Shown piece after piece: positions 18,603-30,495 of a DNA stretch of 30,677 bases; position 1 is the stretch's first letter, and every line of letters begins with the position of its first letter. The stretch comes from Candidatus Micrarchaeia archaeon (GTDB lineage Archaea > Micrarchaeota > Micrarchaeia > Anstonellales > Anstonellaceae): the NCBI GenBank assembly GCA_041671345.1, contig JBAZBT010000001.1, forward strand, positions 1 through 30,677. The letters run 5' to 3'. Made by a program: the position numbers and the translations under genes. The notes below the pieces were generated by a model. That model had not been told where the DNA came from and ran no database searches. It was given only the letters and a program-made list of their open reading frames with translations.

Positions 18603-18659
18603 TCAGCTGCATCCAGTGGTCTCCCCACAGTCGATGCAGACTTGGCACGAGCCGTTCTG
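18603..18659 (-). repeat. displaced original 3' end of nrdJ ([18 protein letters not shown])
   Basis: Encodes the same 18 aa plus stop as 18719-18775 with 16 synonymous nucleotide differences; followed by a T-tract. Confidence 0.95.
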
Positions 18660-18718
18660 CCCCTAGGGGGCATTGGCTAGCCATCAGATCCCCCTGATGG
18701 TTCACCCCCACATGCTTC

Positions 18719-21700
18719 TCATGAGCAACCTGTAGTTTCACCGCAGTCTATGCACACTTGACAAGATCCATTTTGTTTTACTTTCATGGAGCTGCAGGCA
18801 AGGCACTGCGCGCCCGTGAAGCCCTGCTCCTTCGCGGCTTTTGCGCGCGTCTCGTATTCCTCGCTTTCGCTGCCCGTGTCCTTCTCGGCAGGCGCCTCCA
18901 CTAGCTTCCCCTGCGCCTTCTGGTCCTCGATGCGCGGGACGGGCGGGTGCTCGCCTGCCGCGTGCGCGCCGTGCGAGTCGCCGTTCACGGGCTTCACATG
19001 GACAAAGTCAGTCCTCTGCAAATACTCGTACCCCAGCACGCGGAACACGTAGTCCACGATGGAGGTGGCGTTCTTCACGGCATCGTGCCCGGTGACCACG
19101 CCGGCAGGCTCGAAGCGCGTGAAGGTGAACGTGTCCACGAACTCGTCGAGCGGCACTCCGTACTGCAGGCCCTTTGACACCGCGATTGCAAAGCAGTTCA
19201 AAAGCGAGCGGTAGCCCGCGCCTTCCTTGTACATGTCTATGAATATCTCGCCGAGCGCCCCGTCCGGATATTCCCCCGTTTTCAGGTACACCTTGTGCCC
19301 GCCCACCCTCGCCTCCTGGATGAAGCCGCTCCTGCGGGTCGGAAGCTTGCGCCGGTTTATCCTGCCCACTATCTTGCTCTGCATCTGCGCAGGCCCGAAC
19401 GACTCGTCTATCTCGTCGCCAAGCCCGAAAAGCTGCGCAAGCTCGTCCTCGTCGACATCCGCGGTCGCATTGAGCGGCTGGGAGAGCTTGCTGCCGTCGC
19501 GGTAAAGCGCGTTCGACTTCACCATCTGCCTCCAAGAGAGCATGTACGCCTCCTTGATGTCCTCGATGGTGGAGTCGGAGGGCATGTTCACGGTCTTTGA
19601 AATCGAGCCTGACAGGAACGGCTGCGCCGCCGCCATCATGCGTATGTGCGCGGTGTACGGGATGAACCTCTTGCCCTTTTTCCCGCACTTGTTCGCGCAG
19701 TCGAACACCGAGTAGTGCTCCTGCTTGAGGTGCGGCGCGCCCTCGATTGTCATGGTGCCGCACACGTATTCGTTCGCCTCCTCCACCTGCTGCTTGGAAA
19801 AGCCCAGCTTCGACAAAAGGTCGAACTTCGGGTCGGCGAGGTCGGCATCGGCAAACCCGAGCCCCCTCATGAAGTCCTCGCCGAGCACGTACTTGTTGAA
19901 TGCGAACTTTATGTCAAACGCCTTGGGGAGCTGCGCCTCCACCTTCGCGATTTTCTCGGCGGTGAATCCCTTTGCGGCAAGCGCCTCGGCATTCACGTGC
20001 GGGCAGCCCGAAAGCGTGCCCCTGCCTGCGGAATAAAGCTCGATGTCCCTGACCTGCGCGGCTCCGTAGCCGAGCTTGTGCAGGGCCTTCTTCACCGAGT
20101 TGTTCACAATCTTGAAGTACCCGCCCCCTGCGAGCTTCTTGAACTTCACGGTGGCAAAGTCGGGCTCGATTCCCGTGGTGTCGCAGTCCATCTGCAGGCC
20201 TATCGTCCCCGTGGGCGCAATCAGCGTGGTCTGGGCGTTCCTGTAGCCGAATTCCTCGCCGAGCGCATACGCCCTGTCCCAGCATTCCTGCGCCGACTGG
20301 AGCATGTACTCCGGGCAGTGCGTGGGGTGTATCCCCGTCGGCTTGACCGACAGCCCCTCATACTCGTTGTCCGCCGCGCTGTGCGCCGCCCTCCTGTGGT
20401 TCCGAATCACGCGCAGCATGTGCTCGCGGTTCCTCTCGAATGCGGGAAAAGCGCCAAGCTCGCGCGCCATCTCCGCCGATGTGGAATATGCCTCGCCCGT
20501 CATTATCGCCGAAATCGCGCCCGCCATGGCAAGCCCCTGCGGGCTGTCGTACGGCACGCCCATCACCATCAAAAGCGTGCCCAGGTTGGCGTATCCCAGC
20601 CCGAGCGTGCGGAACTCGTAGCTTTTCCTCGCAATCTCCTTGGAGGGGAACTGCGCCATGAGCACAGAAATTTCGAGCACGATTGTCCAAAGCCTGCTTG
20701 CGTGCTTGAATGCCTCGACGTTGAAAACGCAGGTCTCCTCGTTGTAGAACTTCATCAGGTTCATGCTGGCGAGGTTGCACGCGGTGTCGTCAAGGAACAT
20801 GTACTCCGAGCACGGGTTGGACGCGTTTATCCTGCCGTCTATCGGGCAGGTGTGCCACTCGTTTATGATGTCGTCGAACTGCAGCCCCGGGTCGGCGCAG
20901 CTCCACGCCGCGAACGCAATAGTGTCCCACAGGTCGCGCGCCTTCATCCTCTTCATCACGCTCCCGTCGGTCCTTGACAGAAGCGTCCAGTCGGCGTCGT
21001 TCTGCACCGCCCAGACAAACCTGTTGGAGAGCCTTACCGAGTTGTTGCCGTTCTGCCCTGCAACCGTGACATACGCCTCGGACTCGTAGTGCGTGTCGAA
21101 AACCGGGAAGTCGATGTCGGTCTTGCCCTGCTTGACAAGCGCGAGCGTGCGCAGTATGTAGTTCATGGAGACGTTCTTCGCAAGCGCCTGCACGACCGCG
21201 AGCTTGATGCGCTCGTTCTTCAAATCCGTGCTCTGCTCCTCCTTTGCCACGCGCATTATCCTCTTGAGGGATTTCGAGCATGCCTTGGTGCCTGCGACGA
21301 GCGCCGCCACCTTCTGCTCCTCCCTCACCTTCCAGTTCACGAATTTCTCGATGTCCGGATGGTCGACATCCACGATGACCATCTTCGCGGCGCGCCTTGT
21401 CGTGCCGCCGGATTTTATGGCGCCCGCCGCCCTGTCGTATATCTTGAGGAACGACATCATGCCTGACGACTGCCCGCCGCCCGAGAGCCTCTCCCCCTCG
21501 CCCCGCAGGCACGAGAAGTTGGTGCCCGTTCCCGAGCCGTACTTGAAAAGCCGCGCCTCGCGCGTCACGAGGTCGAATATGCCGCCCTCGTTCACGAGGT
21601 CGTCCTTCAGCGACTGGATGAAGCACGCGTGGGGCTGCGGATGCGTGTAGGCATCCGTGGACTGCTTCACCACGCCGTCAGCCGGGTCGACGTAATAGTG

Positions 21701-25225: not shown

Positions 25226-25819
25226 ATGGCCAATCCCGAACGAATGAAAAAAATCGGAGTGCTCTCATTGCAGGGCGGGGTGGAGGAGCACATCAACGCG
25301 CTTCTCTCAGCCTCTGCAAAATGCTCGCTGCCGGTCCAGGTGGTGGAAGTCCGCTCGCAAGAGGACGCCGAAGGGCTTGACGGGATAATATTGCCCGGCG
25401 GCGAGTCCACATCGATTGGCCGTCTCATGGAGCGCGAGGGGCTGTTCCCGGGCATATTGCGCGTGCGGAAAATATTCGGCACGTGCGCCGGCGCCATCAT
25501 GCTTGCAAAGAACGTGGAGGGCGCGGTGCCGGGGCAGCGCTTCCTCTCGCTCATGGACATAACGGCCTCGCGCAACGCATACGGCTCGCAGCTCTCATCG
25601 TTCGAGGCGCGCCTCACCACGGTGTTCGGCACCATAAACGGCGTGTTCATCCGCGCGCCCAAAATCGCGCCCACATCCAAGGACTGCCAGCCCATGGCGT
25701 TCCACGGCGAAGAAATAGTCGCGGCATACCAGAAGAAGGGCGAGCGCCATTTCCTCGCGTCCTCGTTCCACCCCGAGCTCACCACGACGAAATTCCACGA
25801 GTTCTTCCTTAAACTCTAG
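25226..25819 (+). CDS. pdxT: PLP synthase glutaminase subunit
   Basis: IGVLSLQG, LPGGEST, GTCAG, RNAYGSQ, FIRAP, SFHPEL. Confidence 0.95.
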   Translation: MANPERMKKIGVLSLQGGVEEHINALLSASAKCSLPVQVVEVRSQEDAEGLDGIILPGGESTSIGRLMEREGLFPGILRVRKIFGTCAGAIMLAKNVEGAVPGQRFLSLMDITASRNAYGSQLSSFEARLTTVFGTINGVFIRAPKIAPTSKDCQPMAFHGEEIVAAYQKKGERHFLASSFHPELTTTKFHEFFLKL

Positions 25820-25883
25820 CTTTTCCATCTTTTACCACTCTATTTAAATACTTTTTGTGCCACAATGAATAACGGGTGGTGCT

Positions 25884-26546
25884 TTGAACTTCAAAACCTT
25901 TATTGAAAAATTCAAGCCGAAAAGCAAGGAACAGCGCGAGCTTGAGCTCCGCAAGGGCGACTTCTCTGAAAAAGGCCTGAAGAACGCGCTTGACAAGGCC
26001 TTCCAGAGGATGCAGGAAAGCGGAGTGGATCGTGTTGTGCTCAGCGCCGTCCCGCTTCCGGCCAATGAGCCGTCGAGCGGGGAGAAGCACCCGGGCAATT
26101 ATTACCCCGCGGAATCGCTTACTTCTGTTGAACGCCCATATATCAAGGAAAGCGAGCACAAGCCATACCAAGTGGTTGCATTGCTTGCGGATGGCGCAGA
26201 AAAGCTTTCTGGCAACTCTATAGAAGTCGTTGACAGGGTGCCATTCTTTGTCTTCAGCCTTGTCGAGCCGCATAGGTTTTCCAAAGCCAGGACAGTTTTC
26301 AACGGCGAGCAGGAGATAGATGCATTCGTCAAAATTGCCAGCGTGCAAAAAGGGATTTCGGCAGGCGCCACACTCGCGGCAGTCGAGCCGCAGATAGCGG
26401 AGTACAAGCAGATAACAACCCGGCTCTTTGAGAAGTCAGGCGTCTACGAGGCGGTGGAAAAGCTTGCTGCGCGCGAATTTGCCAACGAAACAGACAAGTT
26501 TCTGTTTAGCATAAGGGAAGCCATTGCTTCTGCGAAGAAGGATTAA
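25884..26546 (+). CDS. hypothetical protein, 220 aa
   Basis: ORF with TATTTAAATA at about 25842-25851 and a TTG start; no recognisable motif. Confidence 0.6.
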   Translation: MNFKTFIEKFKPKSKEQRELELRKGDFSEKGLKNALDKAFQRMQESGVDRVVLSAVPLPANEPSSGEKHPGNYYPAESLTSVERPYIKESEHKPYQVVALLADGAEKLSGNSIEVVDRVPFFVFSLVEPHRFSKARTVFNGEQEIDAFVKIASVQKGISAGATLAAVEPQIAEYKQITTRLFEKSGVYEAVEKLAAREFANETDKFLFSIREAIASAKKD

Positions 26547-26548
26547 GC

Positions 26549-26583
26549 CTGCGTCCCCTTCGCGCAGTCGTTGCAGACAAAGC
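26549..26583 (-). repeat. displaced copy of the Zn-finger gene 3' end (direct repeat 1)
   Basis: 34/35 identical to 27347-27381; reads FVCNDCAKGTQ, then A and a TAA stop at 26543-26545. Confidence 0.95.
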
Positions 26584-26598
26584 TCCAAGGGGAGTCCC

Positions 26599-27303
26599 TC
26601 AAGCTTTAGGCGTTTCTGTTATCATGTCGAATTCTTTCTCATACTTGCCTCTTAGAAATACCTCGAATATGGCGATGGCAAATGGAAGCAAGATTGCATA
26701 TGGCGCCAGCAAAACCGTTCCGGCAAGAGTCAGCTTGCCGATGAATTTTTTCAATGATCTGCCCGTGAACTGGTTGTTCTTTTTTAAAACAGCGGCATAT
26801 TCCCCCTTTCCGATGATTTTCGATGCAAGAATGTCTGTTCTTGCCTCGATTTTTCCAATAAAAACAGCAAGAAAGACGTTTACTGCCGCAATCGTGCCAA
26901 TTGCCAGCCCGGCCGATTTGGTGGCTATCGAATAAATTATAGCTGCGGCTTCCAAGGCGTATGCAAGATAGATGGTCGCCCCGAACTTTTTCACGTCTTT
27001 TTTATAGTAATGGATGAACTCATGCGCTGAAACAGCATTCACCGTGCCCTTGTCCGCAATGCCCAGATAGGGAACTGAAAAGGAAACAGCGCCTTTCCAC
27101 GTGTTGCTGGCTTGCGGAAACGGCAATTTATGCAATTCCATCCTTGGCGGGGCAATTCCAAACATTTTGGACAGCTTCCGAATCCTGTCTTCAGCCACTG
27201 CCGCATTCGCCACGGCTTTTTTAGAATAAGCCCCGCCTGTAACCGGCTCCCGAAACAAAGACTGTTTTGTTGCCCGCATAGGATGGAATCTATGCAGAAG
27301 CAT
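26599..27303 (-). CDS. M48/M56-like membrane zinc metallopeptidase (cassette cargo)
   Basis: HEFIH motif, two TM helices, then EARTD (third-ligand position); AT-richer than host genes. Confidence 0.7.
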   Translation of the reverse strand: MLLHRFHPMRATKQSLFREPVTGGAYSKKAVANAAVAEDRIRKLSKMFGIAPPRMELHKLPFPQASNTWKGAVSFSVPYLGIADKGTVNAVSAHEFIHYYKKDVKKFGATIYLAYALEAAAIIYSIATKSAGLAIGTIAAVNVFLAVFIGKIEARTDILASKIIGKGEYAAVLKKNNQFTGRSLKKFIGKLTLAGTVLLAPYAILLPFAIAIFEVFLRGKYEKEFDMITETPKA

Positions 27304-27340
27304 TTTTAAAAGTAGCCAAAAGTGGAACTGCGCGAGAGAG

Positions 27341-27481
27341 CTACTGCTGCGTCCCCTTTGCGCAGTCGTTGCAGACAAAGCCCGTCTTGCAGTTCGGCCT
27401 TCCGCAGTTGCCCTTCCCGCACGCGCGGCAGGTCTCGGTCGCAGTCCTCCCGCAAATCGCGCACAAACCAGCAATGTTCAT
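27341..27481 (-). CDS. small Cys-rich zinc-finger protein, 46 aa (absent from the ORF track)
   Basis: MNIAGLCAICGRTATETCRACGKGNCGRPNCKTGFVCNDCAKGTQQ* has three CxxC motifs plus 2 Cys; TTTAAATATA box about 30 nt upstream. Confidence 0.85.
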   Translation of the reverse strand: MNIAGLCAICGRTATETCRACGKGNCGRPNCKTGFVCNDCAKGTQQ

Positions 27482-27509
27482 AAGAATCACTTCAACGGGA
27501 ATTGGGGGG

Positions 27510-27521
27510 CTATATTTAAAA
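27510..27521. promoter_or_regulatory. shared TATA element between the divergent Zn-finger and ACT genes
   Basis: CTATATTTAAAA sits about 30 nt from ATG 27481 (-) and about 21 nt from ATG 27542 (+). Confidence 0.55.
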
Positions 27522-27541
27522 TTTGTCGCCCAACTTGGCGC

Positions 27542-27928
27542 ATGGCAGGAAAAAACCTTCTCCCCGCGCTTTCGGACGGAAAGTATTTCGTCGGCTCATT
27601 TTCCGAGGCTCAGATGATGGGGCTGGCAGGCTACCTGCAGCACATAACCTGCATCTTCCGCGAGGAAGAGGGGCTCACCGTTGTATTCTCTGGGAATGCA
27701 AAATCCGCCCTGGAAATATACACCGAGAAAAAGATGCAAGGACCGTTCGCGCTCATCACATTGCGCGCGCCAACTTCCCTTCTCGACGTTGGCATAACTG
27801 CGGCGTTCTCATCCGCGCTTGCGCGCGAAAAAATCCCGGCAAACGTGTATGCCGGCTACCACCACGACCACGTGCTTGTCCCGTACGAAAAGCGCGAGGC
27901 TGCGCTTTCGGCGCTGAAAAAATTGTAG
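27542..27928 (+). CDS. ACT-domain protein (DUF2241/CASTOR-like)
   Basis: FREEEGLTVV, LLDVGITAAFSSALAREKIPANVYAGYHHDHVLVP. Confidence 0.85.
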   Translation: MAGKNLLPALSDGKYFVGSFSEAQMMGLAGYLQHITCIFREEEGLTVVFSGNAKSALEIYTEKKMQGPFALITLRAPTSLLDVGITAAFSSALAREKIPANVYAGYHHDHVLVPYEKREAALSALKKL

Positions 27929-28752: not shown

Positions 28753-28800
28753 TCACTTCAGCACGCCGTAGCCCGGCAATCTCCGCCGTTGGCCAAAGCG
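28753..28800 (-). repeat. displaced, decaying copy of the aIF2gamma 3' end
   Basis: Reads RFGQRRRLPGYGVLK* versus active RLGQRWRLSGYGVLK* (29299-29346). Confidence 0.9.
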
Positions 28801-28814
28801 CCCGCCTAATCACT

Positions 28815-29264
28815 TCAGTATATGTACTCAATTTTCACTCCTGGGAAATCCTTTGCCGTGGGCACATAATCGCTCCTTACGAAGCTGACAATCCTCGTTC
28901 CATCCTTGAACTGGAAACGCATCCATGTGCTCCTCGGGCCCCTTACGGCTTGGGCCAAAGGCTGATGGAATTCCACTTTTTCCAGCCGTGCAATCAAGTA
29001 TTTTTTCGACGTCTGCGCGGCAAGCGGTTTTTTGGTCAGGAATTCGATTGTCCCACTGGCGCTTTGCACGCGGACTTCCCTTTCAGTCGCAAGATCCATC
29101 ATGGCAAATGCAATTATGGCAAAGAAAACTGCTCTAAATACTGGGGTAACCCATCCTTCCGCGGGGTCTACAAAAAAATAAAGAAGGCTGAATAAGCAGC
29201 ACGCAAGCGCTAGGGCCACTGCAACATCAAATATCCGTTGATTGGAATTTTTCCTCGCCAACAC
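28815..29264 (-). CDS. 2-TM membrane protein with beta-rich (PH-like) cytoplasmic domain (cassette cargo)
   Basis: Two hydrophobic helices followed by a beta-strand pattern; AT-richer; SD-like AGGGTGA upstream. Confidence 0.6.
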   Translation of the reverse strand: MLARKNSNQRIFDVAVALALACCLFSLLYFFVDPAEGWVTPVFRAVFFAIIAFAMMDLATEREVRVQSASGTIEFLTKKPLAAQTSKKYLIARLEKVEFHQPLAQAVRGPRSTWMRFQFKDGTRIVSFVRSDYVPTAKDFPGVKIEYIY

Positions 29265-29298
29265 AATGCAGTCTTTTTCTTTCGTGTCTTCACCCTGT

Positions 29299-30495
29299 TT
29301 ACTTCAGCACGCCGTACCCTGACAATCTCCATCTCTGCCCGAGCCTGCGCGTGATTGCCATCTTGTTGCCCTTCTCGGCGCAGACGGGGCGCTTGAGCTT
29401 CAGCGTCACCGTGGTGCCCTTGAGCTTGACAATGACGCCAAGCGTGGTCGCCGTGCCAGACGAAACCACGAGCGGCTCCGCGGCTTTCAGCGCAGGATTG
29501 TCAAAGCCTTCGCGCGCAAGCAGCTTGTAATCAAGCACAATCTCCGAAAGAATGGGCGGAAGCGTCCCCTTTTTCCCGATCAAATTCCCGACGAGGTGGT
29601 CCGACTTCGCAACCGCGGGGTCAAGCCCTGTTGCAACGCCGATGAGCCCGCCCGGGTGCGCCTCCTGCACCGACTGGCTGCCCGCCATGAGCGCGGTCAC
29701 TTTCAGGACAAGGGGCTCGGTGCTTTCCTTGTCCTTTATCTTCTTGGAAATGCCCGGGGCGATTTCAATCTCGTCGCCCACTTTCAGGGTGCCCTGTATG
29801 AGCGAGCCGCCCACCACGCCCCCCTTCAGCTTCAATATGTCCGCGCCCGGCTTGTTCACGTCGAACGAGCGCGCCACGTACATGCGCGCGGGAAGCGAGG
29901 TGTCCCTCTTCGGGGTTGGAATCGTCTTCTCAATCGCCTCGATGAGCTTGTCTATGTTCGCGTTGTAGTTTGCGGATATCGGGACAATGGGCGCGCCCTC
30001 GGCAGTGGAGCCCTTGAGGAATTTCTTTATCTGCCTGTAGTTCTCCATCGCCTTTTCCTTGTCCACCAGGTCTATCTTGTTCTGCACCACCACGACGTTT
30101 TTTATGCCGAGGATGTCCAGCACCTGCAAATGCTCCTCCGTCTGCGGCTGGGGGCAAACTTCGTTCGCGGCAATCACCAATACCGCGCCGTCCAGTATGG
30201 AAGACGCCGATATGGTGGTGGTCATGAGCGTTTCATGCCCTGGCGCGTCAAGGAAGGAAACATAGCGCGCGACTTCCCACTTGTCCTTGTCCTTTGCCGC
30301 CTCTGCCTCGGTGGCATACCCTGTGCCGTCCTTGCCCTTGTAAAAAGTCACGTCCGCGTAGCCTATCTTTATCGTGATGCCGCGCTTGAGCTCCTCGGAG
30401 TGCGTGTCCGTCCACTTGCCCGTAAGCGCGCGCGTTAAGCTAGTCTTTCCGTGGTCGACGTGCCCGACCATCCCGATGTTCACTTCAGCTTGCAT
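29299..30495 (-). CDS. eif2g: translation initiation factor 2 gamma subunit (aIF2gamma)
   Basis: VNIGMVGHVDHGKT, EELKRGITIKIGY, DAPGHE, QPQTEEH, NKID, RSFDVNKPG, GGVVGG. Confidence 0.97.
   Translation of the reverse strand: MQAEVNIGMVGHVDHGKTSLTRALTGKWTDTHSEELKRGITIKIGYADVTFYKGKDGTGYATEAEAAKDKDKWEVARYVSFLDAPGHETLMTTTISASSILDGAVLVIAANEVCPQPQTEEHLQVLDILGIKNVVVVQNKIDLVDKEKAMENYRQIKKFLKGSTAEGAPIVPISANYNANIDKLIEAIEKTIPTPKRDTSLPARMYVARSFDVNKPGADILKLKGGVVGGSLIQGTLKVGDEIEIAPGISKKIKDKESTEPLVLKVTALMAGSQSVQEAHPGGLIGVATGLDPAVAKSDHLVGNLIGKKGTLPPILSEIVLDYKLLAREGFDNPALKAAEPLVVSSGTATTLGVIVKLKGTTVTLKLKRPVCAEKGNKMAITRRLGQRWRLSGYGVLK

Follow-up and report, generated by a model that had tools for sequence, protein, structure and literature searches.

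A direct repeat of a zinc-finger gene end around a peptidase gene in a Micrarchaeota contig, read as a probable scar of homology-anchored recombination

How does a gene come to lie between two copies of the end of another gene? The question is raised by a locus of a Candidatus Micrarchaeia archaeon (GenBank assembly GCA_041671345.1, contig JBAZBT010000001.1), in which a direct repeat of 35 nt encloses an open reading frame (ORF) for a putative membrane zinc peptidase. The stretch analysed here, called the window in the following, is the whole of this contig (C1; 30,677 nt), taken from an assembly of 958 kb (128 contigs, 72% complete); the genome under study and its lineage are labelled G000. 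An earlier note, made from the letters of the window, had interpreted the locus as a recent, non-autonomous insertion resembling the attL and attR sites of site-specific integration. Our results point instead, with a probability of roughly 0.6, to homology-anchored recombination with DNA of a relative, accompanied by a single illegitimate join at 26583|26584.

The repeat occupies positions 26549-26583 and 27347-27381, 798 nt from start to start, and stands on both sides of an insert of 763 nt. The two copies match at 34 of 35 nt, the single difference (C at 26561, T at 27359) being synonymous, GCG against GCA, with Ala in both copies. On the minus strand both copies read FVCNDCAKGTQ. No comparable match was found in 100 dinucleotide-preserving shuffles of the window, and the 35-nt repeat is present in only two copies in the 958-kb assembly (at up to three mismatches). 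The coordinates, the spacing and the lone synonymous mismatch reported in the earlier note were all recovered; a genome-wide dispersed element, which the note had raised as a possibility against its own interpretation, does not agree with a count of two. Both copies correspond to the last 12 codons of a conserved 46-aa gene with eight cysteines, named ZnF here for its zinc-finger character, for which no Pfam or NCBIfam family was found. The live gene ends with QQ-stop (TAG at 27341-27343). The distal copy lacks a start codon, and its end reads QA-stop (TAA at 26543-26545); this stop overlaps by 2 nt the TAA at 26544-26546 of a convergent ORF of 220 aa, geneA, and the overlap had been described correctly before.

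As judged by alignment to related genomes, the locus consists of a left half of geneA type and a right half of peptidase type, the repeat being the part of the ZnF end common to both. On the left, geneA together with the distal copy (hereafter the relic) is colinear with geneA followed by a real ZnF end in two relatives (26154-26581 in G018:C42 and 26373-26583 in G022), and both alignments stop where the repeat ends. The flank on the side of the pdxT gene follows the same geneA-type loci, from 25701 to 25855 (G018:C42) or to 25876 (G022). In the spacer between pdxT and geneA, homology correspondingly runs to 25855-25876 against geneA-type loci and stops at 25818/25819 against peptidase-type loci (G006 and G018:C135). 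On the right, 27923-26601, comprising the ACT-domain gene, ZnF, its QQ-stop tail, the promoter spacer and the peptidase gene, aligns unbroken with ENA contig L036 at 81.6% identity. In L036 the end of the peptidase gene overlaps the end of pdxT, and neither geneA nor the relic is present. Likewise, G006 shares 27276-27560 at 92.6%, without relic. Homology to the two locus types ends at 26583 and 26601, respectively. The limits of the repeat would accordingly be set on one side by the point where the two tails diverge and on the other by an illegitimate join.

Since the tails differ (QQ-stop against QA-stop), the two copies represent two alleles of a gene end and no target-site duplication. A duplication made by a transposon or a miniature inverted-repeat transposable element was rejected on the same ground, the copies running into different tails of different locus types, and no terminal inverted repeats were found at the ends of the unit. 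The QA-stop tail of the relic is also carried by many congeners. A link between tail type (QQ or QA) and slot type was considered and dropped, as it fails across metagenome contigs. Exchange at this gene can also be seen in relatives. In a G018-like population, the right flank of C42 (geneA type) and that of L036 (peptidase type) are 99% identical over a stretch of 701 nt whose limit coincides exactly with the final base of the repeat; the pdxT flanks are 95% identical. ZnF-anchored exchange therefore does occur.

A locus that unites two halves could be a product of assembly, and the junction was checked in the Logan contigs of four runs, bearing in mind that contigs drop rare forms. Contigs from two studies, each represented by one groundwater metagenome run, bridged the left junction: X1 (26110-27305, no difference) and X2 (26248-26728, one difference). 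A JGI metagenome contig (L037/L060) displays the stacked layout as well, with 100% identity over 25460-27350. One among the X1, X2 and JGI data sets may be the source of the window itself. As bridged in these data, the left junction is no assembly artefact.

All eight differences of the JGI contig fall in 27351-27400, where it carries the G006 allele; the JGI strain of the G000 lineage switches to the ZnF allele of G006 exactly at 27351. The preceding 74 nt (27277-27350; ZnF tail and peptidase promoter) are 100% identical between G000 and G006 (L016), two lineages showing about 85-88% identity elsewhere and slot genes with only 27% aa identity. The segment is also conserved in L036, and in both G006 and L036 it precedes the slot gene without a relic. 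A G006-like relative co-occurs in run X1. The allele switch at 27351 reflects either a recent exchange, with a recombination breakpoint, or a path switch of the assembly; whichever ZnF allele follows 27350, a complete ZnF gene stands after the peptidase gene. A joint in X1 from 25815 to 27276 (depth 9.8) was considered as an empty site and rejected, its boundaries matching the co-occurring G006-like relative, which has its own slot gene between them.

These observations bear on whether the locus is an assembly chimera of co-occurring strains, or else the outcome of a duplication confined to the ZnF end, with no gene gain involved. The G006-like relative revealed in X1 by this joint and the 74 nt that it shares with G000 would provide material for a chimera, and contigs of X1, X2 and JGI do break or change allele at 27277-27350. 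However, neither parental type contains the junction of relic, filler and peptidase end, which is nonetheless spanned by contigs of two studies and by the JGI contig. A local duplication, for its part, would not give each copy a tail of its own that is colinear with a different locus type. We regard both explanations as extremely improbable.

The gap between pdxT and ZnF is a hypervariable slot, as seen in a survey of 22 congeners and 16 metagenome contigs carrying a ZnF end. ZnF was found in 20 of the 22 congeners, and every locus examined adjoins pdxT, the ACT-domain gene, or both; the named relatives with a ZnF locus are all Candidatus Micrarchaeota or Micrarchaeia metagenome-assembled genomes (MAGs) from groundwater and lakes. 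Some slots are empty and some are flanked by proC; the occupants of the others are geneA, peptidase-family genes, large M48-like genes or a HEMIH protein. Empty slots, in which pdxT abuts ZnF, occur in G004, G013 and G017. GeneA stands alone in G022 and G018:C42 (54-55% aa identity to the geneA of the window) and in distant forms in G003 and G009; no significant Pfam or NCBIfam family was found for it. A peptidase-family gene occupies the slot in G018:C135 and in G006 (where HExxH is lost), other HExxH proteins do so in G012, G020 and G021, and proC flanks it in G016, G001 and G007. Six of the 16 metagenome contigs have an empty slot, two carry geneA, one a peptidase-like gene, two a large M48-like gene and one the HEMIH protein. 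Among 23 genomes and 16 contigs, geneA and the peptidase gene occur together, with two copies of the ZnF end, in the G000 lineage alone. At up to three mismatches the ZnF end is present once in 6 of the 22 congeners, twice in none, and once in 15 of the 16 contigs. The features of the locus in the window are collected in Table 1.

Table 1. Features of the stacked pdxT-ZnF locus in the window
Feature	Positions	Strand	Remarks
pdxT, glutaminase subunit	25232..25819	+	Conserved left flank of the slot; tblastn 65-95% aa in congeners, always adjoining the slot
AT-rich spacer with putative geneA promoter region	25820..25883	+	Restricted to geneA-type loci; GC 36%
geneA, 220-aa ORF of no known function	25884..26546	+	Convergent on ZnF; alternative slot occupant
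ZnF 3'-end relic, 12 codons and QA-stop	26543..26583	-	No start codon; holds repeat copy 26549-26583
Junction filler, 15 nt	26584..26598	.	Homology to neither locus type
P0001, predicted divergent M48/HtpX-like membrane zinc peptidase, 226 aa	26599..27279	-	HEFIH at 86-90; other slot occupant
Intergenic segment, putative 61-nt promoter spacer	27280..27340	-	TATA-like TTTTAAAA about 25 nt upstream of the peptidase ATG, read from sequence
Live ZnF gene, 46 aa, 8 Cys	27341..27481	-	Holds repeat copy 27347-27381
ACT-domain gene	27542..27928	+	Conserved right flank; Pfam ACT_7 1e-11; 89% aa to G006, 77% to G018:C42

The MAG G018 by itself holds both a geneA-type contig (C42) and a peptidase-type contig (C135), with pdxT duplicated, which indicates two co-binned populations polymorphic for the slot. 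The pdxT neighbour called in the ENA contig bears the Pfam domain SNO.

Each half is colinear with one locus type, the stacked form is unique to one lineage and recovered in independent assemblies, and no second repeat copy was found elsewhere; from this we infer the following course of events. The incoming DNA would have derived from a related Micrarchaeota lineage carrying the alternative version of the slot. One crossover would have been ordinary and homologous, located inside a conserved flank (ZnF/ACT or pdxT), and the other end would have been joined illegitimately at 26583|26584. The incoming version would therefore have been added to the resident one, not swapped for it, stranding a non-coding ZnF-end copy of 41 nt. 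Such a process would be an instance of homology-facilitated illegitimate recombination (HFIR). As expected of HFIR, the added DNA runs on one side without interruption into the anchor gene, as it does in the donor-type locus. The relic would have no function of its own, and the peptidase gene would keep its own promoter.

Either the peptidase gene entered a geneA locus, or geneA with the relic entered a peptidase locus; the structure is equally reached by both routes. The segment identities are mosaic and favour neither direction, ZnF-ACT being nearest to G006, the peptidase to G018 and the PdxT protein to G022 (95% aa); at the nucleotide level, identity hardly separates the relatives. The earlier note had described an insertion at the 3' end of ZnF. 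This description stands in so far as DNA was added, the gene left whole and the old end stranded. It does not stand as regards a discrete mobile peptidase cargo: the relic belongs to the geneA half and, therefore, geneA with the relic may equally be the added piece. As to the 15-nt filler at the join, the genome contains no second copy of it at up to two mismatches. An origin as the decayed pdxT 3' end of a peptidase-type locus, or as microhomology, was rejected, since its best match (ACAAAGCTCCA against ACGAAGTTCCA, 9/11) was reached by 556 of 2000 shuffles and is at chance level.

The insertion had been called recent in the earlier note. Across seven species, which are about 85% identical elsewhere, this stretch varies by just 0-3 nt. 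Recency is consequently not shown by copies that are near-identical, and dating the event from their identity was rejected.

Site-specific integration, as compared to attL/attR in that note, would require a non-autonomous cassette placed by a recombinase supplied in trans, the 35-nt ZnF end serving as attB/attP. Its layout is the same as that of the e14 element, which rebuilds icd and leaves the old end of this gene stranded (PMC6379469). Hypervariability of the slot beside the ZnF 3' end would fit such a model, and tyrosine integrases are abundant in congeners. In a 72%-complete genome, an integrase may have been missed. The number of tyrosine recombinases per congener genome ranges from 0 to 17 (17 in G003, 11 in G018), with at least one in 12 of the 22. 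Nevertheless, an attP-like second copy of the repeat was found in none of the 22 congeners and none of the 15 other contigs. The relic is absent beside all other slot occupants in the relatives' loci compared, peptidase orthologs included: where ZnF adjoins a peptidase ortholog (L036, G018:C135) or a distant homolog (G006, L057), the tail and promoter are of the same kind and the repeat is missing. The note itself had named relatives of this type as an observation that would speak against its proposal.

Third codon positions vary at 7 of 11 sites inside the repeat and at 21 of 33 in the rest of ZnF, so that its synonymous sites are no more conserved than those of the remaining gene and there is no sign of a superimposed conserved DNA site. 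CCCCTWGG, tried as a common junction motif, was discarded as being at chance level, a shared 8-mer at 7/8 or better occurring in 22.6% of random triples of 21-nt windows. No member of PF00589, PF00239 or PF01797 (tyrosine recombinase, resolvase and Y1 transposase) was detected in the 958-kb, 72%-complete assembly. The note was right in stating that the element lacks an integrase, the 798-nt unit encoding the peptidase ORF alone. Neither a 798-nt skip nor a back-joint was present in the Logan contigs of the four runs, with the limit on rare forms given above. An integron gene cassette was rejected as well, as judged by the absence of an inverted repeat at the boundary and of a tyrosine recombinase in the assembly. 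Taken together with the two further sites described next, these data make placement by a site-specific recombinase quite unlikely.

Two other genes on the same contig have a duplicated end. In aIF2gamma (28755-29301, minus strand) the final 13 codons occur twice. The live gene ends with GQRWRLSGYGVLK-stop at 29299-29301, and a diverged relic, GQRRRLPGYGVLK-stop at 28755-28757, lies 546 nt downstream, with an ORF for a 149-aa membrane protein (28815-29264) between them. In G021, the real aIF2gamma end and the M48 upstream region are the colinear counterparts of this relic and of the promoter that follows it. Like the ZnF locus, the aIF2gamma site is a stack of two slot types. In nrdJ (18605-18721, minus strand) a second copy of the last 18 codons lies 116 nt downstream; it encodes an identical peptide but is fully recoded at synonymous sites. 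The ZnF, aIF2gamma and nrdJ repeats are mutually unrelated, and each is the end of its own gene. A homology-dependent process is therefore favoured, and a single site-specific recombinase cannot explain, or serve, all three sites.

The 58-nt insert of nrdJ carries a small element, CAGGGGGATCTGATGG ... TGCCCCCTAGGGG, which is also present on C115 and C124 and in the intron of a tRNA-like gene on C126 that is uncalled by ARAGORN. Matches to this element of about 50 nt lie in or beside ORFs of tyrosine integrases (G006:C1:116329-117428 and G018:C105:4196-5296). They would fit an SSV-type att site or a tRNA fragment, and nrdJ may have a different, integrase-linked history from that of ZnF.

Several points weigh against recombination anchored in the ZnF end as proposed above. 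The illegitimate join is deduced from a lack of homology, and no close donor was found for the 15-nt filler. To our knowledge, HFIR has been shown experimentally only in bacteria. Three such scars inside 11 kb are many for a rare accident. With tyrosine integrases in 12 of 22 congeners and a genome that is 72% complete, a recombinase acting in trans is possible. Finally, excised and empty forms were sought in contigs only.

The same topology could also result from a Campbell-type event, in which a small circle carrying the ZnF 3' end, the promoter and the peptidase gene inserted by a single homologous crossover within about 35 nt. A DNA fragment that had circularised, a piece carried by a vesicle or plasmid, and a circle excised in a relative are all conceivable sources. 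The product has the exact topology of a single crossover, with an insert of 763 nt and a unit equal to a 798-bp circle, and the topology at aIF2gamma and nrdJ is equal. The circle itself, however, needs one illegitimate join, of the peptidase 3' flank to codon 36 of ZnF, which makes it no simpler than homology-anchored recombination of linear DNA. Neither a circle junction nor an empty site appeared in the contigs of two runs, a weak piece of evidence, and the peptidase-type relatives lack the second repeat that excision of a circle would require. The lone nucleotide difference in the repeat cannot reveal the crossover point. We consider this origin rather unlikely.

We further looked for gene-end relics across the genome. 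The scan returned 31 matches against 0.33 expected from shuffled peptides, mostly generic repeats or tandem paralogs; it is too noisy for statistics, as is a blastp-based test of 3' against 5' bias. One candidate, C11:2400-3100, was a false positive made of tandem pilin-like genes with archaeal class III signal peptides (RGQGATEYLVLL...). A few further short, tandem-type duplicates of gene 3' ends, at offsets of 63-110 nt, were noted at C2:5786/5849, C13:1786/1719, C4:15028/14942 and C107:2276/2166; they show synonymous differences and no cargo between the copies, and may be small products of the same process. One could also imagine a dedicated gene-gain system of Micrarchaeota, in which non-autonomous units bearing the last 12-18 codons of their target and a co-oriented cargo would rebuild the gene and strand its old end, possibly with integrases or nucleases in trans, the ZnF, aIF2gamma and nrdJ sites being three products. 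We hold such a system to be improbable.

The only ORF between the repeat copies, on the minus strand at 26599-27279, has a GC content of 46.8% compared to 58.3% for the genome (within the lowest 1.7% of 681-nt windows), in agreement with the single AT-richer HExxH ORF described earlier. Its product, P0001, carries HEFIH (86-90) followed by hydrophobic helices and, downstream, an acidic EARTD (146-150). P0001 itself is below the Pfam cut-offs. Its ortholog P0003 is 71% identical in aa, and the homolog P0004 (30% identical) matches PF01435 at 7e-7. The nearest ESM Atlas clusters of P0001 are M48. An AlphaFold (AF2) model of P0001 has a pLDDT of 82, and its best 30 Swiss-Prot matches in AFDB are all HtpX (TM by query 0.36-0.57); compared with the PDB, the model gives minigluzincins and the HtpX domain as top matches, with weak E-values. 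A sequence search of the PDB with the family profile gave nothing significant, the best being HtpX at E 0.22. The family is tiny, with 5 matches at E <=0.001, the query included, among 1.84 billion representatives. P0001 shares with M48/HtpX the HExxH, the hydrophobic helices and the downstream acidic motif, its predicted fold fitting HtpX residues ~66-290, and differs by lacking the N-terminal transmembrane part of HtpX. By these motifs and the model, the slot cargo is a divergent, M48/HtpX-like putative membrane zinc peptidase. The slot gene of G006, P0007 (L016 687-1433), has AIQLCQ where HExxH is expected; its product is probably a pseudo-peptidase devoid of catalytic activity, the gene having been retained in this slot.

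How the DPANN archaea, with their tiny genomes, gain genes is little understood. The locus keeps the version of the slot before the event and the version after it on one chromosome, with their junction intact, and offers a rare natural record of an exchange between related lineages that added a gene rather than swapping one. Together with the two nearby scars, the locus suggests that these organisms regularly gain genes by recombination that is anchored in the ends of conserved genes, an idea that can be tested by scanning for stranded gene ends.

Three known systems can be compared with this locus. Like e14 and phage 21 in icd and like elements integrating in tRNA genes (PMC6379469), it has a gene with a new 3' end, an insert and a stranded old 3' end, the two ends being near-identical with synonymous or conservative differences. 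Unlike them, no integrase, free-form attP, recurrence at the same site with both att copies, or excision was found here. With flexible genomic islands and replacement slots it shares conserved flanks (pdxT and ZnF/ACT), mutually exclusive low-GC genes that mostly encode membrane proteins, and two locus types in one population with flanks 99% identical. Ordinary replacement, in contrast, is scarless and leaves one occupant, whereas here both occupants and a gene-end relic are present. HFIR has been described experimentally in transformable bacteria and was invoked, in a displacement model, for stacked immunity genes of type VI secretion systems and orphan rhs tips (PMC5361080, Kirchberger et al. 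2017, and references therein, which include de Vries and Wackernagel 2002, Prudhomme et al. 2002 and Jackson et al. 2009). The present locus differs from that displacement in its DPANN host, in anchors that are housekeeping or small conserved genes instead of toxin genes, and in a new end that encodes the same protein end and no new toxic tip; here, the mechanism is deduced from comparative anatomy only. The resemblance lies in a conserved gene acting as a one-sided homology anchor beside which non-homologous donor DNA is added, in resident downstream DNA pushed further downstream as an orphan with a piece of the old gene end, and in events that involve no dedicated recombinase and are rare compared to plain replacement. 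The locus reveals no new mobile element and is best read as a well-preserved DPANN example of gene gain by homology-anchored recombination.

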